DNA of 64,000 bases, from NCBI GenBank assembly GCA_973895155.1, contig OZ316895.1:13884225-13948224 (forward strand), written 5' to 3'. Each line of letters begins with the position of its first letter. Positions within the stretch are counted from its first letter, which is position 1. Under the pieces are notes generated by a model that made no database searches, had not been told where the DNA came from, and was given only the letters and a program-made list of their open reading frames with translations. The translations under genes and the position numbers were made by a program. Positions 19,646 through 64,000 of this stretch are shown here, one piece after another. This DNA comes from Marsupella aquatica (taxonomy: Eukaryota; Plantae; Marchantiophyta).

Positions 19646-23422
<3,777 letters not shown>

Positions 23423-27445: not shown

Positions 27446-27589
27446 TCACTTATGTTTTCACACATGTTTACGGAAAATTTGAATAAAATTTGTGATTGAA
27501 ATGTGCATCAAAGTGTCATCAAAGATTGTACATAGTTTCATGTCACTCTCAATTCAAGCACTATCTACACAAACCAAACAAATGCTACT

Positions 27590-37790: not shown

Positions 37791-37799
37791 TCCTCTTTT

Positions 37800-39350: not shown

Positions 39351-41621
39351 CATCGTAGTGGAGCACAAGGAAGCAGCAAACCCAAGCCAGGATTATGTAT
39401 CCGGACCAGTCTTCTCCCTTGATGAGTGTTGTGTTTAGCTTAAGAGGGGTGACTTACACCATAGAACTTATTTACTAACCTATTTCAAGGAACCTTTTTT
39501 CTAGCCCTAGGTTACAAGGCTTTACACAAAGAAAACACACACCTACTAATACTACTTACAACTCCTATAATGCCACCTTATAGAACACCTTTTGGAAATT
39601 CAAAGGTCTTATCCACAATAGATCAAAAAGGGGTACCAAGGCACAAATTAATTGGCAAAAGGCATGGTTGTGCATAGTTCTCGTTATTCTAACCCTCGCC
39701 TTCAAAGTCCTTTTTACACGTTCCCAAATCCAATGTCCTATAATGATGGTATCTGGACCAAGAATAGGGCTTTGAGTTTGGCCTAGGTTTATCCTGGACG
39801 TCCACTCAAGGTCCTCTGCTCCGTCCAAACCTCCTCTAGGTACCTCCTCCTCTAGTCTGACCACGAGGTCACGAGACAGTACACAATGGTGGGGTGACCT
39901 TTTTAGCAGTGTCCAAACCACCTGGGGATAGAAAAAAGGGGAGACTACCTCTTTTCCCTAGACTACCCCCAAGACGCACGCATTATGTTAAGGCAACACA
40001 TAAAGGGCCCTAGTCCAATGAGTAATTTCACTAAATGCAGGCATGAGGTACAACCTGGAAGCTTAGTTCCTGCTAGACTTCCATGCCCACCTCGTCATTG
40101 TAGCTCTTCATCCTTACTCCTATTGTAGGCAAGACACACAACCAAGAAATAATCTAGCTCATTTGACCTTGACACTGGTTCGGACAACCTGAATCCACAG
40201 GAAGATAGCCTCCTATTGTCACTAATATTGTTAGTGTTCGAACCTCATTTCCTTGACAACAATCTCTACTAGGTATTCAACAAAGCCTAACGTCTAAGAG
40301 CAGAGAAAGAATATTTGTACACCAATGCAACTTTGCTTGCAAGAACGCACGCCATGTAACTGAATAATATTTCTCCCTGTTACTTCTGGCCAGGGGTTTA
40401 ATTAAATACTTACAGATTGCCCTAAGAATGGGGCAGTGGCTACCTAATCCTAACTACCCATCATCCTCCTAACTTACTCCTGCTCATCTAATTCTTCCTC
40501 CCCATGTATGACAAGTGGCAACCCTAATTCTCTCTCATGCCTGGCTTCCCACTCGACTGCCTCTACGTTCCTAGCCTCTATTGCTTGAATGTGATGGCGA
40601 GCCCAGTGCTATCGACGCAGCTCATTCCAATGTCTTAATTGATGCTCGTCCCTCTTTCCCAACATCTCGCCCGCTATCACCCACCAATTGTGGTATTCCT
40701 CATAAGAATCAAGACCCCATTCATCCTCAATTTCAATCTCTTCATCAATGGTGTCTGGGTTAGGTTGATACACTATAAGGTATGCCCAATTTGGCGTTGG
40801 CAGTCTCCACATCTAAGTATGGGGTCCTCCCCCATCAAGAATTTGGCGGAGATGAATAAATTATATATTCAAGCAGTTGTTGGTCCCACCTAGCTAAACA
40901 ACTTCCACATAATCATACCTTTACACTGCATCTCCCCATTAAGGCCCACGCTAATCTCGCTTGCCCTCCTGGATTGGTCCACTGCTTCAATCAAAGAATG
41001 CTCAAAACAATACCATCAAAAATAGCAGTGGTCCTTTAGTGCTTGTGCATATGGATATTGACTCGTAATGGCATCTATCCATAGCGTGATTTGTTTTAGA
41101 AGGCTTACAGGTGGATGTGCATCATGCTTGGGTAGCCACACTCTAATCTTGGGATCATGATGCTATCATATTGAGTGGTATGCCGCTATGGAGTTTGTCT
41201 CCAATTGTAGACCAAACTTGTCTTCACCTGTCTAGGGACTTCCATTCATGAACCCCTTGGTAAACTGATGTGGCATCTAGAAGATTGCAGGACCAAAGTA
41301 ATTCCCCAATCTGTAATTATGTACACTCTCTTCTAATCATTTAACTACATTATCCGTAGGGGTTATCCTTTCCCAAAATTATGTCTTCTCCCAAATGCCC
41401 ATATCTAAGTCAGTCTGATCAAAAGGGAATTAACTTGTCAATCCGGATGGTATCTCCAACGTAGGCCACTATGGCCGGATCTCTACCTAACCAATAAAAG
41501 TGAGTCATGGCAAGGTGGGTGAATTGGGGTAAGACAGGAAGATCTACAAAACTCATCCACTCATTGGATACTACGGTGTGGGAAGTGAAATAAGGATTGA
41601 AGATCATAAGTATCTCATTCC

Positions 41622-43105
41622 TCGGAGTCGCGAGCGGAACTCAACTACCGTAACACTTAGCTGACTCCAACGCCAAGCTCCCTTATGGTCCAAGCCCGGA
41701 TAGGCCATCCGGGGAGGCCTTAGCATGGGGAGACTTATGGGCAATGGGACGTGGCACTGGCGAAGGCAAGGCGCCAAGCTAGTGACACACACTAAGGACT
41801 TAGACTAGCTGAGGGCTGGTCGGGTCAAGGGGAAAAGGGCCGGGCTCAAGGTCGACGGTCCAGACCTTTAGATGGGCTTTGAGTTCTGAGAGCTTGAGTG
41901 AGAGCTCCTCTTGGGCCCAAGGCCAATGAAGTTGACTCCATGGGCAACGGACGCTTGGGGTGCGAGTTATGGCCCCATCCGGGTTTGGCCGATTAAGGGT
42001 CCTGAGTGACGATGGGATTTGAGGGCCTAGGCATGAGCACTGGATCAGCCTGATCACAACAAGCTAAGGCACTCCGCTTGCAGATGCCTAACTAGAAAGT
42101 TATGGACATTGCCAATTGGTGGCACGCCCGGACATGCGGTTTGGGGTCCAGATGGGGGGCCAAAATTTGGGGACCAAAGTTGGTCCGGGGGTGGTAGGTC
42201 TCCAAAAGTATATATGAGGGGAGTGGTGTCTCCCTGGGGGCTAAGGGCGAGCCGAAGTCATGAGCTGCGGTGATCGCGACACTAAGGAAAAATGTTAAAC
42301 AGAAACGACGATAACTTCCCAATGAGAAGTCCGTTGGAGGACTTCTTGGATGCGTTAGAAATCTCTCAAGGAGGGCTACGTCTTTCTAAGCTCAGCTAGG
42401 TCTGGGGATGCCATAGATTCTTGGGGTTTGAGGGGGCTATATCACCTGTTTGCCAAATCCTCTCGAAACAGTAGCCAAGCCGCGTTCAATCTCTCACGAG
42501 AGCTTGTGTTGGGGAGGCAAGGCTAAGTAGGTATGGAGGTTGAGTTCCAAGGGCATTGGGCCCCTAGACCATAAATTGAAAGAGAACTGGGAGTTGGTTG
42601 CTAGAATCGGGGCCATTCTGGTCCCGACGTGTTGGGACAAGCTTTAGGACAAGCTACGCTATTTGGGCCATGAGCATGTCCGGGGGGCAGGACGGTCAGT
42701 TGGTGATGGATAGGTACAAGGGGGAACCTGGGCCGCGCCCAAGGCAGGAGCTGTTCTGGACGAATAGTGGGTGTTGGTTCTGGTTCTGGCTTATGGCGTC
42801 GGGAGGACCTATTGCTGACCTACTTACCAATGTTTGTTAAGCTTGAGTTGGGATGCTAGACTTGGGAGATCTAGATCCTAAGGGGTTACTTACCAAGATG
42901 TTTGGTTGCTTGTGCAGACAATGAGGACTGTTGAGTAGCGGTCGTGTTAGAGAGCAAGTGCGGCTTTGTATGGGAGGGTCCGTAGGCGGTGCAAAGGATG
43001 TCAAGTTGCTTGCTTGAGGTCTTTTGTGGAGGCATTCGGGCACCAGGGGCACTTAGGCATGGGTGTTGGGATTGATGAGGGCGCTGGGTGGCAAGGTCCA
43101 CCACT
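41622..43105. repeat. Right arm of the ~1.47-kb inverted repeat
   Basis: Inverted copy of 36318-37790; ORFs 36292-36537(+) and 42886-43200(-) share VVDLATQ.PHQSQH..SAQATKHLGK. Confidence 0.85.
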
Positions 43106-45151: not shown

Positions 45152-48100
45152 GAGATTTATTGTTTTGCCACCGTTTTTTTGCAAAATTACTACCTTGCCA
45201 TGGTTTTTAGATTATTTACTAGAATGCCACCTTTGTGCAGCAATGGTTAAGTTAACCATCTATGGTTAACTCATACTCATCCGACGACCAAAATCATGCC
45301 ACATGTCTGCATCCAATGGCGGGGATTTCCCTCAAAAATCCCTACCCACCTTGTTCTGCCCCAGCTGAAGGGGTTCGTTGCCTAGTGTGAGCTCACCCTT
45401 GCCTGCCCTCTCCCACTGTCAAAAACCTCTCCCTGGTATTCTTGGTTTGTTCCTATCAATCCCATCGCCTCCTAATCTTTGCTTTTAGGGTAGGAGCAAA
45501 ACACAAACATTGCACTCATGTTTTTCTCAAAGAAAATGTGATTTGAATACAGGACTTGCAATTTCGCCAAAGGAAACGGGAGTTGACAGTGACAGTAGAC
45601 CTTCCACTTCCGTGTCATATATCTTTGCATCGGGTAGGTCAAAATGAGCGTGGAGTAGCTTGTTAGAGTCATGACTTCCCCCTCCATATTCTCCCCTCCC
45701 CTCCACTCTTTCTCTTGCCTCCATAGCCACTACATTCAAGTCTTGTTTTCCCCAAAGAAAATGCAATTTTTCTGTCAAAAAATCAATTTTTTTGCAGCAC
45801 AATCCACCTGAACTTCGATTAGCATAACTTTGGATTGGATTGACAAAAACGAGCATGGAGTCGCTCGTTGGAACCACAATTCTCCCCTCCATAGTCTCCC
45901 CTCCACTCCCCTCCCTCTCCTACCTCCATAGCCACTACATTCAAATCGTGTTTTCCCCAAAGAAACACAACTTTTCTGTCGAAAAATCAATTTTCTGGCA
46001 GCACAGTCCACCTGAACTTCGATTAGCATATCTTTGGACTTGATAGACAAAAACGAGCGTGGAGTAGCTCGTTGGAACCACAATTCCACCCTCCATAGTC
46101 TCCCCTCCACTCCCTCCCTGTCGTGCCTCCATAGCCACTACATTCAGATCGCAAATTCCCCTGCAAAAATTAGTTTTTTTCAGCAGCATAGTTTGTTCAA
46201 CTTTGATTTGACATATCTTTGGGTTGGGCAGGCAAAAATGAGCGTGGAGTAGCTTGTTGGGATCGTGGTTTCCCCCTCCATAAAGTCCTCTCCTCTCCCA
46301 TCCCTTTACTACCTCCACATTAGACCATTTTACCCCTAGATTGCTGCCCTAATTGAGTTGTGATTTCTGTCGATTTTCATTGAAATCTCAGAAGTTGTTG
46401 ACTTTGCGATTCTGATTTGTCTTGGAGATTTTGTAAGTAGGCAACATTGCAAGAGAGGGCAAGCTTGGGGAAGAATGGATTGTCTACAATCAACTTCTTG
46501 GAGGAGTTTTGTGGCCTGGTCTTGGCTTGAGATTCAACCCAAATTTCAAGCTTGTAGCTGGACTTATGAGCAATTGTTTCTGGTTTTCAAATGAATGACT
46601 AGAATGCATCATTGCTCTAGGGTATGCTCAGCCTGCTTCAATTGACTTTGCCCATGGAAATTTTAGATTCCGTTGGCTACAATTCACCAGGTTGAGCATA
46701 GAGAGCTAAGTCAAGAGCTACTGATCAATCTAGTTCCTAGGAACTTCCACAATGTAATAATGTTTAACGCAATATATGTTTTGAAGACTATTTTGAATGT
46801 GTTTCAATTGTCCAATTACATTTTACATTGTGCACAATCCACAAGTGTTTGCTTTCAATTTGTTATTGGAACTACATACTGGAGCCAAGAACAAGTAATA
46901 TTGATTATCTCCTTCGTCCTCAAAAAATTGTCATGAATTTCTACTGGATGTTGAATTTGAACCCAAGACACATTGCCCAGGTTGTCATTCAATCTCTACT
47001 TATCCTGTAACACACTAGCTAATAAGTGAGAGTAAAATCCATGTTCACTGTCTCGCTGAGAATTAACAAATTTGTGACTGATTGAGACATCACTGATATA
47101 TCTAGAACTTCTTGACTAAGTTCTCCTCCTTCATTATCAGAGATGTAAGCATCCTTTCTGCTTGCCACTGCATCAACAGCAAACTCTAGATCATCATCAT
47201 ATTCACAATCTGACAAATCATCTTCTGACAACTCATCTTTTGCCTGTGCATGAGCATCTGCCAACTCCTCAAGGTCCACATTGTTCTCCTGGTCTGAGAC
47301 TTCTTCTTCACTGTCCTCTGTTGGCCCTCTACCTCTTGCTTGGGACAACATTGCATCACGAGCTGGGCACTTTCTCCTATCATGCCCAAGTTCCTTACAA
47401 TGGCATGTTGTCTAGGTCTTCGAGCTGGATCCTCTGGTGCAAATCTTGGTCGTGCCTTTTCTGATGGGCGGCCCCTCTTCCACTTGACCAATGGCTCTCC
47501 ACAAGCATTGTTTGGCACAAGGCCATCCTGCAAAATTGCTGGCACACCTGCTGAATATGTCTGCTGAAATGTGACAGTAGAATAAAATTTAGAAACATAG
47601 TCATATTGACGCTTGTGCAACCTGGTGCAAGCCCTCCATGCATGGACGCAAGGCAGCAAAATGTCCTGCCAATCTCCACAACTGCATTTCCATTCAGGTT
47701 CAAATTCGACCAAAAATTGTTTGCGTAAAAAGTCAGTAGCTCTACACTCAGTAGGAGATGAAGCATCAGCAATGAGAAGGGAGGCCTTCTCCTCAGTATG
47801 CCTCAATAGAGTCATAATGTTGGGAGGAAAGGGTGTAGTGATTGATTCAGCAAGTTGTCGCTTCTCAAAATACTTCGTCATCATGTAGTCCCATAACATA
47901 TTGGACTGCTTGAAAGCCACTTCTTGTTGTTGTGGCTTCAAAGCCCTATTCAAGCTTTCAGCTTGCTGACTGGTTTCATGGCCCCATCTGCCAACCAAAA
48001 TTGTTGGTGAGAATAGTCACAAGCAACAGTACAACTGACATATGATATTCAGACAAACTTGTCATATACCTTTTAACTGGACATAAAGCTCAAGAATAGT

Positions 48101-49030
48101 GTTTTGGGTCTGCTGTCCTTTCAATGTACTTCGCAAGCCTTGTATTCTTGGCTTTAATTCGATCGAGCCTCCTCTTGAATTGTTCTGGAGAGGTAGCGTA
48201 CACCAAAGGCTCAAAATCTTTTTGTGCTTGCTTGTTGAAGTGCGTCCTACAGAAAAACCAATGAGTGAGTGATGCAATGATATTTATGCAAGTTACTATC
48301 AACAAGAAACATTTACACAATAAGTGAGGATGTAAAAAGTGGTGTACCTGCAATTATCTCCAAGATGCCAGGAGCAGAAGGCATGAAATCCCCTTGGGAA
48401 AATTTCTACCACACCATTCAACAAACCCTTTTCTCTGTCTGAAATGAAGACAGTTCCTGGTAGGGCCAACTCAGGTATAGCATCTCTAATTAATTGTAAA
48501 AATCTTAACCATTGTGTGGGGTTTTCAGTGGGAACCATACAATAGGCAAGCATGAGCACATAATTGTTTGCATCCATTGCGGTGGCTATAAGCAAAATCT
48601 GCGGGTAAGAAGATCTTGTGTGAGTCCCATCAAATGCTACAAAGGGTCTGCAATGCTTGAAGGCCTCTCGAGCTGCCCCGGGGCTAACAAACAACATCTC
48701 AAACCTACCATCTGGTGCAGAATACTTTGCTGTAGCCATGGGATCCCGCTGCATAATGTGGTGACAGTGCCCTGGAATTAAGAAAAATGAGTCTTTTTCT
48801 TTTCCATCCAATCTGTCCAAAGCTCTTTTCTTTGCTGCATATGCAGTGTGATATTGTATGTTTGGGTGAATAAGAGCTTGAGCTGTATCTCGCAATGATG
48901 AGGCCCTGGTCTGCCTATTTCTCATGATGATATCAATGATTTTCTGTGCAAGACAGTCTGAGTTTGTATGCATGCGTTTCTTCCAATGGTCTGCTGCCTC
49001 ACAACTATGATCTGTGTGTGCCTTGGTGAT
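45152..49030 (-). mobile_element. Mutator-like element (MULE), 3' part; the 5' part lies beyond the Gypsy insertion, outside the window
   Basis: Mutator-like terminus GAGATTTATTGTTTTGCCAC.. at 45152; subterminal ~190-bp repeats at 45560-46320; MuDR-type transposase downstream of the Gypsy junction. Confidence 0.82.
47019..49030 (-). pseudogene. MuDR-type transposase (DDE + SWIM + Zn knuckle), interrupted at 49030
   Basis: ITKAHTDHSC, AFKHCRPFVAFDGTH, AMDANN..LAY..VPTEN..W..FL, FISDREKGL, HAFCSWHL, TSQQAESLN, SWIM CSCGDWQDILLPCVH, knuckle CHCKELGHDRRKC, acidic tail; introns at about 48347-48247 and near 48060-47995. Confidence 0.9.
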
Positions 49031-49635
49031 TGTCGTGCGCATACACATCGCTACACAACATACATCGCTTGTCACACATATCCAAACATAGTCACAATCT
49101 AACGACACAAACCTAAGAGAATGATCTACAAATGGAACCCATGTCCATACATGCCCAAAATCCACAATAATCTTCTTCAATAGTGCAAATTGAACAACGA
49201 TCGATGCTAATCCAACAACGATCCCATCCGACGCGATCACACATGTATGTCAAGCCCAATGCACCTTATGCTTCAAGGAATCCACGTTATATGCACACAA
49301 CCTAGTCAGCCACACCATAGCCACCAAGCTCATGCTCAAAGGCTCAACATTGAAAGATGAGGCCTTTGAGCCAACACAAGGGGATAACTATCCCTCACAC
49401 CAACTCAAACTAAACATAGTGCTCATATAGCACACATACAAAACCTCTATACCTAGATAGTACGATATACTTTACTACCACTCTAAATGGTGTGACAGCT
49501 GTCGTGCGCATACACATCGCTACACAACATACATCGCTTGTCACACATATCCAAGCATAGTCACAATCTAACGACACAAACCTAAGAGAATGATCTACAA
49601 ATGGAACCCATGTCCATACATGCCCAAAACCCACA
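49031..49635 (-). repeat. Gypsy 3' terminal repeat block, A'-GC-B-A in element orientation
   Basis: 49031-49166 and 49500-49635 are 136-bp direct repeats with 2 mismatches; B (49168 onward) matches 57586-57687 plus 63990-64000. Confidence 0.9.
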
Positions 49636-49812
49636 ATCGCCCCCTTAGCTGGGAGTGAGGTCCCCTAACTCTAGCTAGCCATGAGTTCTACAAGGTTGAT
49701 ATACACCTTTTTTTAGGTGTGAAGATCAGGAGGCCGGGTGCAAGTGAGCCCCATCGATCACCTACCTGCAATCTATATCTTCCACAAGAACACAAATGAT
49801 AACTAGTCGGCA

Positions 49813-49960
49813 TCACTGATATTGAGGACACAACCATGATCCACTAGGAATCATGTGCAAGGGTGGTGTCAAACACGACATGTGCCATCCTCTAGAACAT
49901 CGATCACAAATCAACATAGTAGTTGCTCCCTCAGCAGACCCACACAACATACACTTCAGG
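49813..49960 (-). pseudogene. PHD finger at the integrase C-terminus
   Basis: CMLCGSAEGATTMLICDRCSRGWHMSCLTPPLHMIPSGSWLCPQY fits the C4HC3 PHD pattern (last Cys decayed to Tyr). Confidence 0.9.
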
Positions 49961-52805
49961 CCAGCACGAACATGTGCCAAGCTTGGATCCACAGTACCAT
50001 CAATGTTTGGAAGATGACATGACACACAATTACGCACATGATCCTTCCAAACCATACCATCACGTCCTTCCAACATAAGGACTCCAGAAGGCAACACTTC
50101 ATGCACACGTAAGATTGTCCACCTTGCGGTCACATCAAGCGTCGTTGGTGCTGTCTGCTACAAATAAACATAATCGCCAGGATGAAATCTTCTAATCCTC
50201 GTGCGATAACCTCCTCCACGAATAGTAGTATACCGCAAAGTATCACAATGTTGGGCAATAGCAAGGTTGTCAAAGGCCATGGCATGACTCTCTCAAAAAC
50301 TCATGCCCTCTCTAAACAAACCTTGACCCAAATATCTGGATCATCCAAATCTACAACAGTTGCAACATCACGACGAATAGCTGCCGGCAAATCTGGTTTT
50401 CTACCATAGAGCAAGAAATAAGGTGAGAAGGATGCAAGTGATGCTTGTTGACTGAAACGGTAGCCCATAGCTAACCAAGGTAGTTGGAGATCCCAGTCTC
50501 CCAAATGACCAACCTGCAAGCCATACTTACGTAATCCTCTCTTCATAGTTTGTACAACTCTCTCTGCCAATCCATCTGCCTCAAGATGATCGCGAGAAGT
50601 AGTACGATGATCAATCAGAGCTTGCTCACACAAACCCTCAAAATCTCCATGGAATTCCGTGACCTGATCAGTCAACACCTCAACTGGTGCTCCAAAGTGA
50701 CTGAGTACTCGATCCAAAAATGTGGTAGCCACTCCTCCACTAGCTTTGTCTGGCAATGCCACTAGTTCAATCCACTTGGAGAAGTGCTCCACCATAACCA
50801 AAACATACCGATTATGACGTTGGGTAAAAGGCAATGGACCAGCAAAGTCCAAACTCCATGGATATCCCAAACCCATGATCGGCAACGGATGCAACTGGGG
50901 AGTGGGAGCATTGAACGATGCCCGAACTCGATCACAAACCACACACTTAGCTATCAATTGCTGGACATCAGTGTGCATACCACGCCACCAATACTACGTC
51001 TGCAACAAGCTATAAGTGCGCTTCACACCGAAGTGCCCTAAATCTTTGTGCGCATGTCGCACCAAATGTACTTGTTGTGACGGTTTTGGTACAACCAACA
51101 CCTTCCCATCATGTAGTACCCTCAAAAGATGGTTTCCTTCCCATCAAAATCTCTTGGCTCGTTGTAGAACCCTATCACGATCCTTAGCATCAACATTGCC
51201 ACCAATGGAGCCACCATGCAAATATTCCAACACTCTCACATCGTTGTGAATATCTTGCTGTTCAAAAACTACATCACCAACATCCATATCTGAAGACTCA
51301 TCATCTACTCCATCCAATGAAGTAGAGTCTATAGATCCACTGCATGCTGGCACCCAACAAAGGAAAGCAGATGCATGCCATCCTGGCACCATCTCCTTAT
51401 CTGTCTCATCATGCCATCGGGCTCCAGTCTCATCCTCTTGACTGGTACATGGATTGCGGCTCAACCCATCTGCATCCAAATTTACTTTTCCAGGTCTATG
51501 CACAACCTGAAAATCATACTCCTGCAAAAACAATGCCCATCGTGCAAGCTTCCCTCTAAGCTTATCAGACTCCATTAACCACTTGAGAGGTTGATGATCA
51601 GTGATCAAGGTGAACAAATTACCAAACAAATAGCAACAAAAATGTGCCACAGCCCACACTGCTGCCAAATACTCTCCCTCATAAGAGCTATACTTAGCCT
51701 CTGCTAAATTGTTGGATCTACTGGCATACGCCACAACAAACTCATTCCCCTCATTATCCTTCTGAGTCAACACTGCTCCAAGCCCTACTCCACTCCAATC
51801 AGTGTGAAGCTGAAATGGTCGCCCTGAAATGGGTCTTCTCAAAATAGGTGTTGACGCCAGTCTTTCCTTCAACTCTTGGAAAGCATGCTCCTGGTTGTCT
51901 CCCCAAATCCACTCCTGATCCAACTTAGTGAGGATAGTTAAAGGTTCAGCAAGCTGGCTAAATCCTTTAACATACCTCCTATAGTAGCTCGCCAATCCTA
52001 AGAATGCACGAACTCTGCTCACATTAGTAGGATGAAGAATCTGTGTAATGGCCTCCATTTTAGTCTGTTGCACACCCAATCCTCTTGGGTAGATAGTGTG
52101 GCCCAAATACTCAATCTTCTCTTGAAAGAACTTACACTTGCCGGGATGGAGCTTCAATCCATGTTCCCTCAATCTCTCAAACACAATCTGCAAGTGTCTC
52201 TGATGTTCTTCCATAGTAGAAGAATAAACCAAAATATCATCAATATAACAGCTGACAAAATCCAAACCTGCAAGGATTCGATCCATGACTCTCTGGAACT
52301 CAACTGGTGCATTCTTCAACCCAAATGGTAAGAACAACCACTGATACAAATGATCTTTGCCATAAAAATCAATCTCCCAGAATGTTGTCTTGGACCTGTC
52401 AGAATGCCTAATTGGCAACTGATGGTACCCCGCCTTGAGGGTCCAACGAACTAAAAATCCTTGCATGCCCCACTGCATCAAAGATCTCCTCCGGTGTGGG
52501 CATGGCATATCGATCAGATTTTATCTGACAATTAATAGGCCGGTAATCACCGCACATTCGCCTATCTGTGTAATTGTCATCAGCACATCCTTCTTGGCTG
52601 GCATCACTGTGGCAGATGCATACTCTCTATATGAAATCTCCACCAAACCAGCTTCCAACAAATCCTGAGTTCTACTCTGGATCAATGCCCTCTCCATATC
52701 ACTATATCGGTATGGTCGTCGAAAGATTGGCGCATCACTAGCCAATTCAATCTGAATACCAGGGCCCTTCAATGTTCCCAAATCTTTCATGCTAAATGCA
52801 AACAA
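49961..52805 (-). pseudogene. Gypsy pol: reverse transcriptase, RNase H and DDE integrase
   Basis: PIFRRPYRYS, LKAGYHQL, LPFGLKNAP..FQRVMD, YIDDILVYS, LHTDWS, ITDHQPL, NLDADGLSR; integrase HHCC (HAHKDLGH..CVVC), WSLDFAGP, LTDQ.TEF, DGLAERVV; several stops and frameshifts. Confidence 0.95.
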
Positions 52806-53129
52806 TTCCAGTAACTCTTCAAGAATTGATGCATTCGACGTCTCTCACCCCCTGTCAACTTAGGGCCAATTTGTGGCTCCCAACTCTACATCAAAGCTGT
52901 GATGTCTTCCTTTGGGGTTGAAGAGATAGTAGGTGGTTGCTATTTAGCAACAATTTGAGCAGTCCCAACCTGCTCAACAATCTGTCCTGCATTGGCCAAT
53001 CCTGCCATAGGTCCATGGACTGTCTGCTCGCCCCCAGCTATGGTCGCTACTGTCTAAGTAGACCGCAAGCTCACCAATGGACGATCAGTAACACCAAAAG
53101 AGCGCATCCGCAATTGTTCAGCTAATCCC

Positions 53130-54060
53130 AAGCTGATAATCCAAGTCAAGCAATTCAAATCCATGGCTTGACCAAGGACTTGGCGGCCTGAACTCTCTGA
53201 CACAGAGGCAACCGTAGTAGTGCCAGTCAAAAATCCCATAACACGCTCTCTTTCATCAGCAGTAGGTTCCACTAACTACTGTAGAGTTGTATCCTAGACA
53301 AGTCCAGGCCCACCTGCTCTGAATGCATATGAAGTAGAATGACTCACAAAAGTAGGTAATGCACAACGTGGGCGACCAACTACATTGACCACTGCCAATG
53401 GAGGTCTGTCAGGCTGGGTCACACCTTGTGCACGACGCCCTGGATCCAAAATATCATCCACCACCAAGGCTGCTGAGCAAGGAATGCTATCAAATGCTCG
53501 CTTCAACACCTCACAAGGTAACAAATTAGTCCACCACAAGCGTGGACGATGTGCACGAGAACCCACATGTGCAGCATTCAATAACACAGCAGGTCCAATC
53601 CAAAACTTAACCTGATGAACGCTGGCAACAAGTCGATGTCGATCATCACCCAATAATGACACATTCTCCAAAATGACGCAACACCCGTAACATCTCCCAA
53701 AACAATGCAGATCTTGGATCATGAAGTCCATGTCCAACTCTAGCTCTAGATTGACCCTGACATGGCCAACCTGCAATCACCAAATCAATGAGGCCAACGC
53801 GATCCAAGTGATCCGCCCCCAACAATGAAATATCAGCTAGCAATGCATGCTGATAACCACGAACGGCATCCACTGGCAACAACTGTGGGTAATGTTTGAC
53901 CAACGTACAATGCCACATGACGTAATGAGACTCTACGTGTTGTCTCATCAGTCTCCACATACAAATAACAACACATAGGAATGTCGGCTTGAAGAACGAC
54001 AGCCAATCTAGTGCTAATTCCACCAAATAAATCCAACAAACAAATATCCTCATGTGGATA
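53130..54060 (-). pseudogene. C5-cytosine DNA methyltransferase domain (DNMT3-like) embedded in Gypsy pol
   Basis: Motifs in canonical order across three frames: I LLDLFGGIS, II YVE, III ADI, IV IAGWPCQGQS, V LHDPRSALF, VI ILENV, VIII AHRPRLWWTNL, IX ERERVMGF, X RQVLGQAM. Confidence 0.9.
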
Positions 54061-54419
54061 TTGCCATGCAATAGGAGTAGTATCCAGTGATGAAAGAGTC
54101 ACTGGTCCATTTGCAGTTGACTGCTCTGCTCTTGATTGCGGTGTAAAAGCATGACGCCATGCATCATGTATCAATCGGGCCGCACTTTGTGGCAAGGCCT
54201 ATCCAGTCCCCCATACTGGTGTCACAACACTATCAATGGGCAATCCATGCATCAAGTGTTCCTCATGTGTCTCCTCCACCATAACAACATATGTTGCATG
54301 TGCGTTACCCTCAATCAAATCATCAGCTCCAGTAATCAAACTACTGAATGCTACCAAAGATAATGGTGCAGATTTGGGGCCTCCAATAGGTCCACTAAAT
54401 TGCACTAGCAATTGGCTCA

Positions 54420-56460
54420 ATCGAGAATCTTCAGATTGCCAATCGGGTCAATACGACACCGATTCATTCCAAAAATCAAGAACAAATCCCATAGGATAGA
54501 GAACTATACATCCCACCAAGACATCATATGACTCAGCCTTAGTCAAAATAGCTCAAGCCTGGATCCGTGAGTTATCCTTTGAATGATCCTCCTGAATCCT
54601 AAGTTCAAGTGCTCGTCGATTGATATGCTGTGTGGGTGTAGGTCCTCCCAATGAAGTCTGAATGAAAAAGGGACACTCCTCCAAATCATCAGGACGCAAT
54701 CCCAATCCTCTTATCGCTGACTTACCCAAAATCAAAGGCTGAGCACCAGTATCCAGTAACACTTGCTCTGGCTGGTATATTGCTCCAGAAGGCCCAACTA
54801 ATCGGAAGATACCACTCCAATTATCCAATGATATGACGCTAGGTTTAAACCTAGTCCTCTCATAAGCAAGGCGCGCTGGTAAATCTATCAACCTTGCCGC
54901 TGTTGCATGCCATGTGTCATTACTGGCAATAGGTGAATTCAACTCCACTGCTTAAAAATTGGGCGTTGCTTCTGCACGCAAAGCAACAGCTGGAGTGTCC
55001 TCGCATAATGTGGCCGCCAATCTGAACACCTCTGCTGGACTAACTCCCAATGTCAACGTATCCGTAGCTGAAAATAATGGTGTGTGCACTATAGTAGTGG
55101 CCGCCCCAACAAGGTACTTGTCATCCCTGTCACAACATCACTTGATTCTGCCAACTTACCCCCACCTGGGTTAGTCCGAATCGGGTTCTTAGAGGTAGTT
55201 TGAACTGCCTCTAACAATGTAAACGACTGAGGGAGCTTTGTTTGACGACGAGCATCCCCTCTTTGAGGATCTAACTCTACTACTGCTCCTTGGGGCTCAA
55301 GGGCTTTTGCTGCTCCTCGAGTCAAAGTTGTTGATGCTTCGACATGGGCAATGCCACACATAAATCCCATGGTGGCAAGATCTCCATCAGCTCCATAAGA
55401 GGTTGAAGCTCCATAGGATGTAGAAGCTCCATCACTAGCAGTAGGTCTAACTTGAGAACTAGCCATTGCCGCTAGTTGTTGCTCCAATTGAGCAATCTTT
55501 GCATCCTTAGGATCTGTGGTAACGGTAGGAGCAACATCACCTCCCTATCTTCCTGCATGTGGCATGCCTCGACCACGTCCACCACCTCAATCTACCTCCT
55601 CTTCCCTGATCATACGCACGTGGTCCTTCCCGTCGTAGTTCATGATGAAGTACAAAACACCTATCTTTGGTGTGTCCAGCAACTCCACAATGATCACATT
55701 GTCGTTATTCAAACGTAGATGCCCCTCCTTGCCCCCTATTATCTGGGCAATATCTTTGTGCATGATCCCCACCACAAGTCCAACATCTTGACTGTTGTCC
55801 AGCATAAGAAGGCACAGGTCTCTGACTAGTAGATTCCCGTATTGTAGGCTTCTCCCTCTAGCTCTTACGTGCAGTACGTTGCGGTGTGGGCGTCGATGCA
55901 ACCTTTGGTGCTTCCTTGGAAAATCCGGAAGTCACCACCTTCTCATTCACCATATTGAGCTCAATGCGCTCAGCAAGTGCAACAACTATAGCCAATGTGG
56001 GATTTGAATCCCTCAATAGAGTGACATCTCTCACTCTACGATGCAACTCCCTATCCAGAATTGCATACCAAAATTGGACCGCTTGGGCCTCTGTCACTCC
56101 TTGTGTGATCGTAATCAACCTTCGCATACGAGTGTATGCCTCACGTAGGCTCTCTCCAGTTTTGCGTTGGAACTCTTGAAGACCCTTCAACTTATCGATT
56201 CTCACACCCTGATAGTTCTGCTTCAATACTTCTAAGAACTTCATCACAGGGTTAAATATTGGTGCAGCTCCACTCCCAGCCACAATCACACCGGTAGGAA
56301 TAGCGGTGGATGTTGATGGAGTGCCACTCTGGCTAGTGCTGCTAGAAGAAGCCGTAGCTATAGCAATTGGTTGGGCAACCGCACTTGTGCCATAAGTGAT
56401 GGACACATAGTTTGGTGACCAATGCTGTCTCCATGCCTCAATATCCACTAAATGAGCCTT
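54420..56460 (-). pseudogene. Gypsy gag (capsid-like region and two CCHC knuckles) plus aspartic protease
   Basis: LQEFQRKTGESLREAYTRMRRL..A.AERIE (gag); CWTCGGDHAQRYC and CDHCGVAGHTKDRC at about 55780-55645; VLLDTGAQ protease motif at about 54750. Confidence 0.88.
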
Positions 56461-56500
56461 TCAAAACTCATGGGTTCCGTGGATACCCATCACTCAATCG

Positions 56501-56941
56501 CGGAACGGTGTTCCGTAATGCACCACCACCAATCTCCAAGATAATTGATGGAACGGTGTTCCGTAAACTGCTTAGTTGTAGGAGAGTGTTCCGCAACCCT
56601 CCATCACCAATAGCCAAGCTAATTGGCGGAACAGTGTTCCGTGAGTTGCCTAGTTGCGGGATAGTGTTCCACAACCAACCCTTGTTCACAACGCAGACGA
56701 GACGTGTGCTGGGGCAGACCAATCTTCAATATGCACCCACAACAGAACAGTGTTCCGTGGAAGACCAATCTTCCCAAAATTGTCACAACAAAATGGTAAT
56801 CTGTACCCGATCATTCTCCAATATGCACTCACGACGGAACAGTGTTCCGAGGAAGACCAATCTTCCCAAAACTACCATGACGGAACGGTGTTCCGCAATC
56901 AACCAATCTCCAATATGCCCTCTCAACGGAACAGTGTTCCG
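56501..56941. repeat. Array of nine palindromic CGGAAC(A/G)GTGTTCCG-type motifs in the Gypsy leader/gag 5' region
   Basis: Copies start at 56501, 56549, 56579, 56627, 56657, 56743, 56835, 56881 and 56927 (spacings 48, 30, 48, 30, 86, 92, 46, 46); those at 56579 and 56657 are degenerate. Confidence 0.85.
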
Positions 56942-57687
56942 TGGAAGACCTTCACAACCTTATTGCTGCGAAAACCCCACCGCAATTCTCGGACAAAGCA
57001 CTGTTCACTAACTTTGTCATTTTCCTTGTGCCCTAGGTCGTCGCCACACCTTGCCTCTCCGCGGTGCGCTACGTCGCTGCAGGCAATGCAATTCGCCAAC
57101 ATTCAACGTCACTTTCTTCGAAGGAATGCACTGTCCGTCAATTCAACATCAAACTTGATGAATCTCAAATCTGCAAAATACAACTTCAACGATCAACTCC
57201 CGATTGGGACCATCCCCGAACCAGAATCACAAACAATCACAAGTCTGATCAACTTGCCTTCACATAACCGCAGCAAATACTCTCAGCAATCCGCGCACAA
57301 TAGTCAATGGCAACTTCCAATCATCGACCGCACACTCAGTCTTCCAAAATGGTGCAATGTCGATCGATGCAAACCGCAACTCCAAATGCGCAACTCAACA
57401 ACTCAAAGCTCCGCATTCACTCAAGCTTTCTCAACACCAACTTGTAACAGATCGAGATACCAGCGATCCGTTCAACAACAAAACCCGATCCGAGATACCA
57501 CGAATCGTCAACAACAAAACCACAACAAAATCAAACTTTTGTTTGTACAATCCGTACATCAGAATTTGAAGCTGATCTTTCAATGTAATCTTCTTCAATA
57601 GTGCAAATCGAACAATGATCGGTGCTAATCCAACAATGATCCCATCCGATGCGATCACACATTTATGTCAAAGCCCAACGCACCTTG

Positions 57688-60600
57688 TGTTAGGAATTGA
57701 CTCCAGTTCCCGACATAGTTAGCTTGGTCTTACTAGGGTTAGTTAACCCTAGATTACATTTGGATAAGATCGGCTTAGTTTAGGCCCACTCATCTTGGCC
57801 CCCTTGGGGGGGTATAGGCTGGAGGGAGAGCACTCTCTCCCTCATTCTTCACATGTACTCTCATTTGCTATGGAGCCTTCAGGAGTTTCTCCACTCGGGG
57901 TGTCTTGTTGGTGTAGCGTCTGATTGAGTGAGTCTCTCTCATGTTTCTGCATTGCTGTCTAGTCCGGAGCTGACGGTTCTTACAAGTGGTATCAGAGCCT
58001 CGTGTTTGTGGTTCGGTGGCCTGGGGAGTGGTGAGAGCGTTTGTTGTGTTGGATTGTGGTGGAAGATTGAATTGTCGTCGACGGTTGCATGATCGTTTCA
58101 CTGGTTGTTTCGCGTTGAAGGTTTCGTGCTTGAATACGGTGACGGTTTCCCGATTGAAACTTCAGCTGGGAGTGTCGGATGTGTCTCTGTTCTTTGAAGT
58201 ACTGTCAAGAGGACAGTCTAGCGATCTCTTATGCGCGTCGGCGGGCACTACGTTTTGGTGAAGCTGTCACTGCTTTTCATCATTGGTGTCCTGAGTAATC
58301 TTGTAGATTGAGGTTGTTGTTTAGAGCTTGATGCTCTAGGTTATGGCTTGTATATGTTTCGACTTAATCTTGTGTGGGGCCGAAAAGTGCGTTGAGGGAC
58401 CGGTGTTGCAATTTATTTTTCTTTTCGTATATTTTTTGTTTGTGCCGCATCGCAACAAAATACGGCGGTGCGGACGGGTTTCTTTGCGTATGTGCGGAGA
58501 GAGGGGTGAAAGAGAGATTTTATTGCCCGGGCACGTTGCCCTATGCGCGCGAGTGAGCGAGGAGGGCTCGAAATACAAAGGACTGAAGGAGGAGCGAAGG
58601 AGAAAGTCGAGCCCCTAGACCGAGGCCCTATGAGGTACTAGAGCAGGGCCTTAGGTCTGTGCAGGTACAATCATACCTGTAAGTACAGTTTTAAAGTGAG
58701 GGGAGGGGGAGTTCAAAGCTCCCTTCTCTTGGGAGCTTTAAGGGGGCCATTGCCCTATGCAGAAGCAATAGGAGGGGAAAGGGGAAGCGAGCATACTCCT
58801 TTCCTTAGGGAGCACTTATTAACATGGGCACGAGGCCCTATGCTTGTACTTTAAGTGAGGAGGGGGAGCATACGAGGCTCCTTTCACTTTGGAGCCTTTA
58901 ATTAAGGCTTGCGTCAGGTGGATGGCCAAGGACACAAAAGGTACTATTGTACCTACACAGTACAGATTTGGGAGGGGGTATGAGGAGGTATTATATATCC
59001 CTGTACTCTGCCAGATTTTTTTTGAAAAGAAATTGAAGGTCGGGAGGACGATTGTAGTCTTTTCGTTCTTAATTTTTTTTGTAAGGGTTTTTACTTGTTT
59101 TCTTTTCTTTTCCTTCCGTGTTTGGATCTTTTCTTTTCCAATCGGACAGGTGTCGGCTCCACGTTCTTTCTGCTGTACATTTTGACTATACTTTGATTCC
59201 CTGAAAAAGATACTTTTCCAGAGAGCTGATTTTTGACTGAAATTTTCAATTTCAGCGGTCGTCGAGGCAGAATTTTTTGGCGACACTTTGCAAGGGGATA
59301 CTCAAGGGAGTTGAGCACGGGCTAGTGAAATTGATTCATGCGTTGCTGTTGCGAAATTTTTTCGGGACCTAAGATACCTGACGGGGGTCAAAACAACCAT
59401 TTTGACCCCCCTCTGGTCCGGGTTGAATAAGTTTTTGCTGAAGAAGTTTTTCGCCGAATTATTTTCAGATCTTGGCAGTGTACCTTGCAGGCTACGCGGC
59501 GGTGCATTCCATTTCCACTTTCGCCAACTTTCAATTTTTGGTGAATTTTTGGGTGGAGGTATTTTGGTTGTGTATTTCTTGTGTGTTTGTGGCAGCATCA
59601 ATGACTTCAAGAAAGCTTGCGGCGCCAAAGTTTGAGATGGAGAAGTTTGACGGGAAGGTTAGCTTCAGCCCCTGGACTCGGAAGGTGACCAATGTGTTGA
59701 TCCAGCAGGGTCTTGAGAAGACCCTCATTGGAGTGAAACCCTTGAATCTAACAGATGAGGAGTGGGAGGACATGTCGGTGCCGGCGTGTAGCACAATTGA
59801 GTTGTTCTTGGCAAACAACATTCTCAAGAACGTGTTGGGGATGGATCGGAATGCCAAGAAGATCTGGGATATGCTTACTCAGCTATACCAGAGTACTTTG
59901 TTGACTACTCGTATTTATCACTTGGAGTGGCTGTTCAGGGTGAAGTTGAAGGATGGTGGCAACATGCGTGATCACCTCAGTCTCTTCAATGAGATTGTGC
60001 ACGAGGTGACCACGGCGGGAGACAAGTTGACCGATGAGTATCTTGCGATGCATTTGTTGATGTTGCTTCCTCAGACCTATTCGACATTGGTGACGGTCAT
60101 CACACATGATAAGTCTACGTTGAAGTTGGATGAGGTGAAGGCTACCATTCTTGCAGAATGGGGCAAGCGACAACTTTCTGGCCGTGACAATGAGTCTGCT
60201 GCCTTAGTGGTTAGAGGCAGATCGACGGAGCGTACTATGGATCAGTCTAGATCTAAATCACATAGTAGATCTAAATCTAAGTCCCGTAGTAAGAAAGTTC
60301 AGTGTTGGCATTGCCATGAGAAGGGCCATACCAAGTGGAATTGTCCTTCTCTATCGAAGCAAAAGCGTCCTGCTTCCAATAGTGCGTCCTCATCGTTAGC
60401 TGGTATTGTGATTGCTGATAATGAGGATGCTGCTGAAGTGCTATGTATTGGTGCTATGAATTCTTTGTATGACAAGAAATGGATGTTGGATTCGGGTTCC
60501 TCTTATCACGTGTGTCCAATGCAATCGTATTTCTCCACTTACCAACCTTGTACCGGTACGGTGGAAATCAGAAATGGTGTCCGATGTGCGATTGTTGGCA

Positions 60601-63600
60601 TGGGGACTATCAAATTCCGGATGTTTGATGGTGTTGTGCGAGCATTGACGGGAGTCAGGCACATACCAGACATCTCTAAGAACTTGATTTCTCTTCGTGC
60701 TTTGGAAGCTGGTGGATCTCATTTTACTACACATGATGGTGCGCTCTTTGTTGTCAAAGATGATGTATCTTTGATTAAGGCGCTACGGCAGAATAATTTG
60801 TACATCTTGGAAGGAGATGTCATTGCTCCTAGAGTGGAGCATGTACGTGGATTCTGTGGTGGAACGTTTGGATGCCACGACAACATCTGCCGCAAAATCA
60901 TCTTCGGTTGCTTCAATTGAAGCACCCTCAATATCTGGTCGCACACAAGCCATAGATTTGTGGCATGCACGGTTGGGGCACTTGAGTGGTAAAGGATTGG
61001 CAGCCTTGGCAAACAGAGCTTTGTTGCAAGGCGCTCAATCTGGTAAAATCTCTTTCTGTGAAGATTGCATCTTCGGCAAGCAGAGGAGAGTGAGTTTCAG
61101 TTCTAGTTCATACCATTCTCATGAGATTCTAGAGTATGTACATTTAGATGTTTGGGGTCCAGCGCTGGAGCCGTCATTGGGTGGAGCCAGATATTTTGTG
61201 ACGTTTGTAGATGATTACTCTCGAATGTGTTGGCTGTACTACATGAAAGAGAAGTCTCAAGTCTTTGAGATCTTCAAGGAGTGGAAAACCATGGTAGAGC
61301 TACAAACTGGGAAGGAGTTGAAGTGTGTTCGGTCTGATAACGGTGGCGAGTATAAGTCCAATGAGTGTGATCAATTTGGTCGGGACCTTGGCCTCAAGCG
61401 TCATTACACTGTACCGGAGACCCCGTAGCAGAATGGAGTTGTAGAACAGTTGAATTGGACATTACTGGAGAAAGCACGCAGCATGCTATGTAAGTCCAAG
61501 TTGCCCAACAACTTTTGGGCTGAAGTTGTCAACCAAGCTGCATACGTCTACAATCTGTCACCGCATAGTAGTAAGTTGATGCAGACTCCATTTGAGTTGT
61601 GGTATAAGAGACCTGCTGATTACTCTAGACTTTGAGTTTTTGGTTGTGCTGCCTATGTTCACATTGAGCAGATACACAGGTCTAAGTTGGATCCCAAGTC
61701 TAAGAAATGTATTTTTCTAGGCTTTAGTCCTGGGCAGAAGGGCTATAAATTGTGGGATCCTGTCGATTGCAAGGCAGTTGTGAGCATAAATGTTGTTTTT
61801 GACGAAGAGTGGTTGTCAAGACCCCGGGATATTCAGGAGGAACAGGTGGAGGAACCCACTACGGTGGAGCTTGGTGGTGATGAGGAAGCTGCTGGTCCCT
61901 CTGGTAGAGGAGAAATTCCTCAACCAAGGCGCTCCACCAGGGCCAATTTTGGCCAACCCCCTGATAGATTTGGTTTTGCAGATCCTCGTGTTCACGTTGT
62001 TGAACATGACGTTGATCCCGATGTTGTTTTGCTTACTGAAGATGGAGACCCCTCTAGCTATGAAGAAGCTATGGCCTCTCCAGAGAAGGATAAGTGGTTG
62101 GAGGCGATGTTAAAGGAGATGAATTCTTTGAAGAAGAATTCAACTTGGCGCTTAACTGACATGTCTCGCGGAAAAACACTGGTTCCGTGTAGATGGTTGT
62201 ACAAGAGGAAGTAGGATGGCACTTACAAGGCACGCCTTGTGGCCAAAGGGTACACCCAAAAGGAGGGCTTGGACTACACGGAGATTTTCTCACCAGTTGT
62301 CAAACTCGCCACTATTCGTGTTTTACTTGCGATTGTGGCATTCTATGATCTTGAGTTAGATCAAATGGATGTAATTACTGCTTTCCTGCATGGATTGCTT
62401 GATGTAGAGATTTATATGACTCAGCCTCCAGGTTTTATTGACGAGAAGACCAGACACTTGGTGTGTAAGCTCTTGCGATCGTTATACGGATTGAAGCAAA
62501 GTCCCAGATAATGGAATAAGCATTTTGATTCCTTCATGTTATCTCAGTGGTTCACACGAAGTGAACATGATTGTTGTATTTACATGAAGGAGATGGAGAA
62601 TTACTCACGTTTTGGTTACATTGTGCTGGCATTGTACGTGGATGACATGCTTATCCTGGCTGAGAATAAGTCTGATGTTGCCCATCTGAAAGCAATGCTG
62701 AGTAAGGAGTTTTCAATGAAGGACTTGGGTTAGGCCAAGAAGATACTAGGGATGGAGATTCTTCGTGACAGGGAGCAAAGGCAATTATGGTTGTCTCAAA
62801 GGCAGTATTTGGAGAAGGTACTTGCCAAGTATGGAATGGAGAATGCAAAACCAGTTGGTACTCCATTGGCCTCCCACTTTAAACTCTCAAAGGATGATTG
62901 CCCTTCTAGTGAGAGTGATAGACTGGCGATGAAACATGTTCCCTATGACAGTGTTGTGGGTAGTTTTATGTATGCAATGACATGCACTAGACTTGACATT
63001 GCCCACGCTGTTAGCATTTTGAGCAGATTTATGGCAAATCCTGGTAAGCTTCACTGGGAAGCAGTGAAGTGGGTTTTGCGGTATCTGAAAGGTACCTTAG
63101 ATTGTGGGATCTTATTTGACGGTAAAGCAGACTCTACATTAGAGTTGGAAGGTTTTGTAGATTCAGATTATGCTGGTAACTTGGATAACAGGAAGTCTAC
63201 TACAGGCTATGTGTTTATGCTGGGTGGAGGTTGTATTAGCTGGAAGTCGGCAACTCAATCTTGTGTTGCGTTGTCTACTACTGAGGCTGAGTACATGGCT
63301 GCATGTGAGGCAACCAAGGAGCTGATCTGGCTAAGGAGATTGGTGAGTGATCTGGGTCTTTCACCTGAAAGACCGGTGCTACTGTGCGACAGTCAAAGTG
63401 CTTTGCATCTGGCTAAGAACCCTGTGTTCCATGCCAAGACAAAGCACATTGATATTCGTTATCACTTCATCCGTGAGGTGATTGAGACGAAGCAGATGTT
63501 TCTGGAGAAGGTGGCTTCAGAGGAGAATGCGGCAGACATGCTTACCAAAGTTTTACCTACCAGTAGCTTTAGTCATTGTGTGGATATTATTAATGTTAGG

Positions 63601-63984
63601 GCCAAACCGGAGACTATGTAAATATGTTACTTAGTTGCATATTGTATATCACCTGACTCATTGTGTGAACTTGAGTCAAGGTGGAGATTGTTAGGAATTG
63701 ACTCCAGTTCTCGACATAATTAGCTTGGTCTTAGTAGGGTTAGTTAACCCTAGATTACATTTGGATAAGATCCGCTTAGTTTAGGCACACTCATCTTGGC
63801 CCCCTTGGGGGGTAAAGGCTGGAGGGAGAGCACTCTCTCCCTCATTCTTCACATGTACTCTCATTTGCTATGGAGCCTTCAGGAGTTTTTCCACTCGGGG
63901 TGTCTTGCCGGTGTAGCGTCTGATTGAGTGAGTCTCTCTCATGTTTCCGCATTGCTGTCTAGTCCGGAGCTGACGGTTCTTACA
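57688..63984 (+). mobile_element. Full-length Ty1/Copia LTR retrotransposon (Tnt1/Tork-like), inserted in the Gypsy 5' repeat
   Basis: LTRs 57688-57984 and 63689-63984 (TG..CA; 10 substitutions and 1 indel by my count); CCTTG TSD at 57683-57687 and 63985-63989; PBS TGGTATCAGAGC (tRNA-iMet) at 57987; PPT AAGGTGGAGAT at 63678. Confidence 0.97.
59601..63621 (+). pseudogene. Copia gag-pol, disrupted
   Basis: KFEMEKFDGK, CWHCHEKGHTKWNC, WMLDSGSSYH, LWHARLGH, HLDVWGP, RSDNGGEY, ARLVAKGYTQKEGLDY.EIFSPV, LYVDDML, GFVDSDYAG, KHIDIRYHFIRE; frameshift near 60850 and stops at about 61426, 61633, 62212, 62509 and 62731. Confidence 0.96.
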
Positions 63985-64000
63985 CCTTGTGCTTCAAGGA

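Follow-up and report, generated by a model that had tools for sequence, protein, structure and literature searches.

The window, the whole stretch of 64,000 nucleotides of Marsupella aquatica DNA analyzed here, contains a dead copy of a Ty3/Gypsy retrotransposon in which a DNMT3-like cytosine methyltransferase (DNMT) domain ends the gag-protease (gag-PR) frame. The features of the element, in its own 5' to 3' direction, and the two transposons adjoining it are as follows (RT, reverse transcriptase; RH, RNase H; INT, integrase).

49031 to beyond 64000, minus strand: Ty3/Gypsy element, decayed
57584..57687, minus strand: 3' part of terminal repeat A1, 94/103 bases the same as A2
57575..57583, minus strand: predicted self-priming site immediately after A1, 9 Watson-Crick pairs with repeat A
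55590..56560, minus strand: gag and zinc-knuckle region, broken (Retrotrans_gag E 0.043, weak; tblastn to Marchantia gene models)
54450..54950, minus strand: aspartic protease, broken, with LLDTGA at 54756 (Asp_protease_2 E 0.0029, under the curated cut-off)
53130..54045, minus strand: DNMT3-like C5 cytosine methyltransferase domain, broken, last in the gag-PR-DNMT frame (Pfam PF00145, motifs, tblastn)
52934..52942, minus strand: conserved in-frame stop between DNMT and RT with its context, TAG CAA CCA, fitting the CARYYA readthrough motif
52095..52830, minus strand: RT, broken, with CGDYR and YIDD (RVT_1 E 1.6e-29)
51500..51900, minus strand: RNase H (RT_RNaseH E 1.2e-33)
50270..51275, minus strand: integrase interrupted by stops, comprising a zinc finger and the DDE core (rve E 1.1e-11; Integrase_H2C2 E 2e-05)
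49816..49960, minus strand: PHD finger closing the integrase frame (PF00628 E 6.1e-11)
49636..49650, minus strand: polypurine tract, immediately ahead of repeat B1
49500..49635, minus strand: terminal repeat B1, TG start and CA end, with a 2-nt spacer between it and repeat A2
49168..49497, minus strand: terminal repeat A2, TG start, containing the partner of the predicted self-priming site (49350-49358)
49031..49166, minus strand: terminal repeat B2, closing the element at its 3' end with CA, 134/136 bases the same as B1
57688..63984, plus strand: younger Copia element inside A1, not part of the Gypsy element (LTRs 286/296 identical; target duplication CCTTG)
47186..49030, minus strand: Mutator-like transposase, host of the Gypsy insertion, not part of the element (MULE E 2.9e-13, and SWIM)

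The DNMT-carrying Gypsy element

Tblastn with database relatives showed that gag, protease, methyltransferase, RT, RNase H, integrase, and PHD finger follow one another without introns from 56560 to 49816, and the PR-RT-RH-INT order of Ty3/Gypsy elements was recovered from Pfam, motifs, and tblastn. An earlier reading, made from the letters alone (the sequence-only reading), had placed an intronless methyltransferase between protease and RT, which agreed with the colinear tblastn alignments. That reading had also put the domain inside the pol polyprotein; the domain does lie between PR and RT, but the stop at 52942-52940 divides gag-PR-DNMT from RT-RH-INT-PHD in the window. A host gene split by introns was rejected; the domain was intronless and aligned colinearly with database relatives from end to end. 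The copy was dead, as the same reading had stated: frame changes were found in the DNMT near 53903 and 53672, with about 10 codons missing at 53672, together with stops at 53296 and 53278, and gag, PR, RT, and integrase contained further stops. No tyrosine recombinase was matched in 16 scanned frames of the window, in which an rve integrase was found instead. A DIRS element was rejected on the basis of the DDE integrase, the missing recombinase match, and the target duplications present in relatives.

Repeat A1 continues at 63985-64000 and then leaves the window. The Copia element nested in this 5' repeat was nearly full length, with scattered stops and LTRs 96.6% identical. Within the 5' UTR of the Gypsy element, tandem repeats of 46 nt were present at 56500-56950. 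Elsewhere in the window we observed a spliced chloroplast-type ketol-acid reductoisomerase gene (about 21700-23460, minus strand), close to the rice and spinach enzymes and, with the nearest named relatives of the Gypsy element, indicative of a probable bryophyte host, and frames resembling a Harbinger-type transposon pair (25840-28740) and a LINE (29508-34241), both labels being given from translations. Long inverted repeats, with arms of about 1.4 kb that were 78-88% complementary, occupied 36318-43105 around frames 37723-38732, which we take from their motifs to resemble a non-LTR reverse transcriptase.

The methyltransferase domain

All the C5-MTase motifs that the sequence-only reading had named were found on the minus strand, spread over three frames: FGGIS at 54027, GWPCQG at 53771, LENV at 53671, AHRPRL at 53554, WWTNL at 53536, ERERVMGF at 53254, and QVLGQAM at 53182. 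Motif I was indeed in the frame of the protease (LDTGA at 54756), with three stops in between (54555, 54450, and 54201). The motif order was the canonical I-IV-VI-VIII-IX-X, with the motif I glycine loop, Cys, EN, RxR, and motif X all present, and a DRM-type enzyme was rejected because this order was not circularly permuted. PF00145, the profile proposed as a check, matched 53649-54098 with E 2.6e-07 and 30.8 bits against a cut-off of 22, and it was also matched by 25 of 32 scanned relatives; the other three window pieces overlapping the DNMT gave no Pfam match when taken singly.

The claim that the enzyme is DNMT3-like held by both profile and fold. With a family profile the best match was DNMT3A (E 1.6e-20), followed by DNMT3B/C, DRM2 (1.9e-08), and M.HhaI (4e-05), and the match to DNMT2, the tRNA enzyme, was far weaker than that to DNMT3A. 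The single window piece 53297-53776 had no match in PDB by sequence, whereas the family profile did. DNMT3A/B structures were also the best fold matches (DNMT3A E 1.1e-15, TM 0.74 by target) of a predicted model of the relative P0009 (mean pLDDT 70.8). The residue after the catalytic Cys was Gln in 130/145 representatives, so that motif IV is PCQ or ECQ and not PCN, the form in DNMT3A. For this reason, and because our DNMT trees were built from element-borne domains only, the name DNMT3-like is used.

Across 150 clusters at 50% identity, the catalytic Cys was kept in 143/145 covered representatives, the motif VI Glu in 147/149, and the motif VIII Arg in 145/148 at both positions, and the SAM-binding glycine was nearly invariant. 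The pattern of conserved residues makes the domain look maintained for catalysis. The DNMT is under purifying selection between families. The dN/dS ratio between the window and metagenome locus L064, a comparison of the kind that had been suggested as a check, was about 0.19 for DNMT, 0.12 for RT, 0.08 for integrase, and 0.15 for gag, with dS near saturation; RNase H was left out, its reference frame being broken. Within a young metagenome family, the ratio in six pairs was 0.62-1.0 for DNMT, 0.20-0.70 for RT, and 0.32-0.70 for integrase, and the higher DNMT ratio among these young copies may reflect relaxed selection, or decay alone. The observed/expected CpG ratio was 0.48 in the Gypsy element, 0.53 in the Copia, 0.37 in the LINE, and 0.25 in the MULE; because the CpG depletion of the element was no stronger than that of its neighbours, it gave no sequence trace of self-methylation.

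Distribution of the family

Database searches with the window DNMT piece and with the Marchantia domain gave 58 and 59 relatives, respectively. The named ones were from Marchantia, Riccia, Calypogeia, and Sphagnum and from the chlorophytes Chromochloris, Monoraphidium, and Hariotina; cluster look-ups, which covered 30 of several hundred proteins, most of them without an organism name, added Closterium and Klebsormidium nitens. No vascular-plant or Physcomitrium names occurred among the named relatives listed, which is weak evidence of absence. The PR-DNMT layout was present in gene models of Marchantia, Calypogeia, Sphagnum, and Closterium, and fragments were present in Riccia and Klebsormidium. 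The window DNMT was 84% identical over 310 columns to its closest relative, P0001, and the window RT showed 69% identity with an RT protein from Calypogeia.

When 1.84 billion representatives were searched with a profile, 464 clusters (50% identity) scored at E<=1e-30. Another retroelement domain was found in 100 of the best 150 clusters, and the other 50 matched the DNMT profile only, among eight profiles tested. Two layouts were distinguished: gag-PR-DNMT followed by RT-RH-INT-PHD in all named streptophyte members, and RT-RH-DNMT-INT-PHD in all named chlorophyte members. Relatives P0084-P0106 and most of P0163-P0307 formed a large clade of intact-looking polyproteins of the latter layout, the named ones being from Hariotina, Chromochloris, and Monoraphidium; the searched literature held no match for this clade. 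Among the best 80 of 160 confirmed metagenome loci, those with room for the flanking domain had PR upstream in 45/57, RT downstream in 42/59, integrase in 28/36, and PHD in 21/30, all at fixed distances from the DNMT. In these 80 loci the open frame across the DNMT reached at most 467 codons, and no intact element from a land plant was seen. Scans of viral contigs (12 pattern matches) and prokaryotic genomes (17 pattern matches), both of limited sensitivity, gave no confirmed case.

In a DNMT tree of 41 rows the window grouped with the Marchantia, Calypogeia, and Sphagnum domains (100/99), and a single branch (93/92) separated the rows of chlorophyte layout from the others; the deeper forks were unsupported and the tree had no outgroup. 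The RT tree likewise placed the window with bryophyte elements; only this placement was used, since the window RT row has an off-frame stretch and its long branch is an artefact. The sequence-only reading had described a land-plant element. Bryophyte relatives are indeed the nearest named ones, but the family also takes in chlorophytes and other algae, and it is likely, from these comparisons, to be an old green-plant lineage that includes the Klebsormidium elements and not a land-plant invention. The case that the same reading had set against itself, relatives without the domain and a one-off capture, failed: the domain is fixed in the Gypsy family, among database and metagenome relatives alike. 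A one-off host DNMT3 retrocopy was rejected on this family-wide presence.

Five Marchantia models annotated as host genes (Mp8g17980, Mp4g09160, Mp6g11220, Mp2g26090, and Mp8g15430) are parts of the DNMT-Gypsy family, and some of them are labelled DNA methyltransferases. The host MpDNMT3b is a separate gene, Mp5g09290 (bioRxiv 10.1101/2021.02.12.428880).

The stop between DNMT and RT

The conserved stop was missed by the sequence-only reading, as were the PHD finger, the split direct repeats, and the predicted self-priming site. The closest relative, P0001, terminates exactly at the position of the window TAG (52942). Unspliced proteins of the clade (Marchantia, Calypogeia, and metagenome) end 75-97 residues past motif X, and sister-clade proteins end 82-199 residues past it. 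Among the 53 loci having both anchors, 46 had TAG (34) or TAA (12) in one alignment column, and CAA stood directly after this column in 46/53; the exceptions at the stop column were one GAG, one deletion, and five divergent loci that were unaligned. The stop was in frame with RT wherever the locus frame was unbroken. It is not universal, since P0049, P0179, P0309, P0314, and P0196 read from DNMT to RT in one frame. Conservation of the stop within the young family was uninformative, because the whole linker is 93% conserved there.

The window context, TAG CAA CCA, is a full CARYYA, whereas the loci have CAA-CCC, which is not. A stop in CARYYA context occurred once on the sense strand of the element and 4 times in the whole window on both strands. 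The stop lay 20 codons ahead of a common WEP motif in the window and 17 codons ahead of it in 13 loci checked, and both keep TAG-CAA-CC despite different flanking residues; the homology of the two stops rests on this comparison, the window row having fallen in another alignment column. Downstream of the stop, no stable structure was found (z -1.2 to -1.9). CARYYA drives readthrough in tobacco mosaic virus and other plant viruses (PMC4132726), and retroelements maintain a Gag:Pol ratio of about 20:1 (PMC2194720). It is likely, judging from the conserved codons, that RT-RH-INT-PHD is made by readthrough of TAG-CAA-CC, which would leave the DNMT at a Gag-like level, in excess over RT. Alternatively, RT could be made by reinitiation or from a second RNA; an in-frame ATG three codons past the stop in 46/53 loci would suit this explanation, but the window copy is without that ATG.

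Terminal repeats, priming, and integration

At its ends the family carries direct repeats that are split, in the arrangement A-coding-B-A-B; the termini are TG..CA and the target duplications are 4 bp long. In the window, the polypurine tract, B1, A2, and B2 close the element on its 3' side, and a part of A1 stands on the 5' side. The B1|A2 joint reads CA, two bases, TG, and in the window it is the palindrome GACAGCTGTC. The ATCA next to B2 is a predicted target duplication, only the 3' end of the element being visible in the window. All 17 visible 5' ends had A without a preceding B. The 3' end was B-A-B in seven main-family loci and B alone in others; this recurrence led us to reject chance tandem duplication as the source of B2, and a lone 3' B may be due to recombination or to collapsed short-read assembly. 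The complete A-coding-B-A-B arrangement was present in L019, L060, L062, and L064, and 6 of the 7 loci holding both ends had a 4-bp target duplication (five insertions; the 5' end of L019 was damaged). The target duplications and TG..CA fit the action of a DDE integrase. Two complete identical LTRs were not seen among these loci, whose repeats are split instead. L016, L042, and L078 were of the form A-coding-B: they had one A on the 5' side, one B on the 3' side, and a 4-bp target duplication, and nothing in them was repeated. This form could stem from recombination of B1 with B2, from a circle product with one LTR, or from assembly collapse.

No tRNA-type primer site (TGG) was found after A1, where pairing with repeat A was found instead. 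The 9 Watson-Crick pairs of the window were equalled in 8/300 shuffles. Besides the window, the pairing beat shuffles (at most 9/300) in 8/18 loci, with 9-19 pairs, and failed against them in the other 10, all decayed. Compensating changes were observed in these pairs between the window and the loci. Self-priming is known in the Tf1 and Tcn1 elements (PMC6317226).

The polypurine tract is followed by B and A, as with an ordinary LTR, and the integrated form is therefore a circular permutation of B-A-coding-B-A. The simplest route to such a form would be end-joining of the cDNA and then integration at the B|A site beside the 5' end. At the A2|B2 joint, alterations were present in the window, L059, and L060, and five loci had a precise joint; this pattern fits fresh joining without proving it. 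The mirror product, A-B-A-coding-B, was absent, and the circle route leaves this absence unexplained. The family works as a Gypsy yet has non-canonical ends.

Proposed mechanism and alternatives

We propose, with a probability of roughly 0.55, that the DNMT is cut from Gag-PR-DNMT, kept in the particle, and methylates new cDNA, and that the pre-methylated copies integrate with the help of the PHD finger in site choice. In live copies, the stop before RT would set the methyltransferase at Gag-like levels, and readthrough of TAG-CAA-CC would yield RT-RH-INT-PHD, with many methyltransferases per RT. The Gag-PR-DNMT fusion would carry the enzyme into the particle, where cutting would release it. 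Before or at integration, it would methylate the new cDNA of the element itself, and new copies would arrive pre-methylated, likely at CG, with the cDNA protected or host responses tempered. Reverse transcription would start by self-priming, the bases after A1 annealing to the middle of A, and the B|A joint would be the attachment site of the integrase. The PHD finger would read histone tails and thereby choose integration sites. Animal DNMT3A couples its catalytic domain to a histone-reading ADD finger.

An active enzyme might instead act in trans, on host chromatin, rival elements, the flanks of insertions, or the element's own genomic copies as a copy-number brake, guided by the PHD finger. 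The catalytic residues are conserved, a Gag-level output would be far above the need of one cDNA, and a self-limiting, host-benefit role was raised by de Mendoza et al. (PMC5890265); we nevertheless consider trans action unlikely, since fusion behind Gag and protease would put the enzyme in the particle, and the chlorophyte relatives have the DNMT between RNase H and integrase, beside the cDNA-handling enzymes. Slightly less probable again is that the domain is a DNA- or RNA-binding module or an RNA methylase, for example one that holds the cDNA ends, or the B|A joint, while the split repeats are produced in replication. It would accord with the occurrence of split repeats and a palindromic joint in the same families, and with the inactivity in yeast of the Klebsormidium enzyme, KnitGypsy-Dnmt3, which gave no methylation there, a result its authors call inconclusive (PMC5890265). 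The SAM-binding glycine, Cys, Glu, and both Arg are nearly invariant, however, and would be needless for pure binding, and the DNMT2 match, far weaker than that of DNMT3A, argues against an RNA methylase.

That the domain is a captured host DNMT3 retrocopy, or a neutral passenger of a dead element, we regard as very improbable. Such a passenger could account for the decay of the window copy and for dN/dS near 1 among young decayed copies, but it is contradicted by the identical position of the domain in liverworts, Sphagnum, Closterium, and Klebsormidium, by RT and DNMT trees that both join the window to bryophyte elements, by purifying selection between families, and by the host MpDNMT3b being a different gene.

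A wider picture is put forward tentatively, as a doubtful extension of particle-borne methylation of new cDNA. An ancient Gypsy superlineage across green plants (chlorophytes, Klebsormidium, Closterium, liverworts, and peat moss) might combine a Gag-level DNMT3-like writer, made by way of a leaky stop, with a PHD reader on its integrase; it might prime itself and integrate from an end-joined circle cut at an internal palindromic B|A site, a step that would give the split direct repeats. If so, it would be a DDE-integrase retroelement with a circle as its normal substrate, delivering copies already methylated, and in bryophyte genomes the superlineage would have escaped standard LTR finders.

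A retrotransposon-borne DNMT3 that had been described as a local acquisition in Klebsormidium now extends to land plants, including Marchantia, and to Closterium, and chlorophytes carry the same domain in another domain order. The role of the enzyme thereby becomes testable in Marchantia, a plant with genetics and methylomes. Many bryophyte gene models called DNA methyltransferase are transposon parts. From the stop ahead of RT, methyltransferase is predicted to outnumber RT to an unusual degree, and split repeats that have integrase-type ends suggest that replication departs from the standard LTR scheme.

Comparison with known systems

The sequence-only reading knew of no well-characterised embryophyte example, and none was found in the literature, nor any report of a chlorophyte Gypsy-DNMT3, with thin coverage of subscription journals. 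The parts consulted of PMC11982613, PMC12885004, and PMC8557442 held nothing on Gypsy-DNMT3 in land plants or chlorophytes; Gypsy-DNMT3 in 'streptophytes' is cited, without land plants being named, in the corresponding parts of PMC12344493 and bioRxiv 10.64898/2026.05.21.726589. The 96-genome table of PMC5890265 is without Marchantia or Sphagnum. For integrase elements with split direct repeats, the literature searched gave nothing beyond the legend of Fig. 4 of that 2018 paper. REXdb was assembled from elements whose two LTRs agree by at least 95% (PMC6317226) and, being built in this way, would miss split-repeat elements.

Other cytosine methyltransferases are likewise borne by retrotransposons: SymbioDIRS-Dnmt3, which is DIRS-borne in Symbiodinium and methylates CG de novo in yeast, SymbioLINE-Dnmt, and the EpiLTRs of Cymbomonas and Euglena (PMC5890265; bioRxiv 10.64898/2026.05.21.726589). 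The Symbiodinium elements have a tyrosine recombinase or are LINEs, whereas the window family has a DDE integrase. EpiLTRs also join methyltransferases to a chromatin reader, but there the DNMTs form the sister group of DNMT4 and are accompanied by a chromodomain and an adenine methyltransferase (bioRxiv 10.64898/2026.05.21.726589), in contrast to the DNMT3-like domain and PHD finger of the window family. A PHD finger also occurs in the Gypsy polyprotein of Gypsy-7a_cRei of Chlamydomonas, for which no methyltransferase is listed in the relevant part of the source (bioRxiv 10.1101/2022.06.16.496473). SIRE1, MuLV, and Tca2 share an in-frame stop between frames, theirs being at gag/pol or pol/env (PMC2194720), unlike the stop after gag-PR-DNMT in the window family. 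With DNMT3A/B the family shares AHRxR and ER..GF at an identity of about 20-23%; it differs from DNMT3A/B, host DNMT3, and DRM2 in having PCQ for PCN and no PWWP/ADD, and it is unpermuted, unlike DRM2.

The closest known system is KnitGypsy-Dnmt3 of Klebsormidium nitens, which de Mendoza et al. (2018, PMC5890265) describe as acquired independently within the Klebsormidium lineage. The Klebsormidium protein GAQ93235.1 (P0241), of PR-DNMT order, was among our best 150 matches. In both families the Gypsy element bears, behind its protease, a Dnmt3-like domain that is intronless and non-permuted; also common to them are A-coding-B-A-B DIRS-like repeats with Gypsy domains (for KnitGypsy, Fig. 4 legend of PMC5890265) and purifying selection. 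In KnitGypsy-Dnmt3 the DNMT is in the Pol ORF (PMC5890265), whereas a conserved stop separates DNMT from RT in the window clade; the DNMT is in one frame with the rest of Pol in some other clades (P0049, P0179) and not in the window clade. The window family has a PHD finger, and 'PHD' is absent from the main text of PMC5890265; self-priming, TG..CA, and 4-bp duplications were likewise not met for KnitGypsy-Dnmt3 in the parts of that paper compared. The hosts also differ, the window copy being in a land plant and KnitGypsy-Dnmt3 in the alga Klebsormidium. Relative to those parts of PMC5890265, what is added here is the range of hosts, the stop ahead of RT, the PHD finger, and the structure of the ends.
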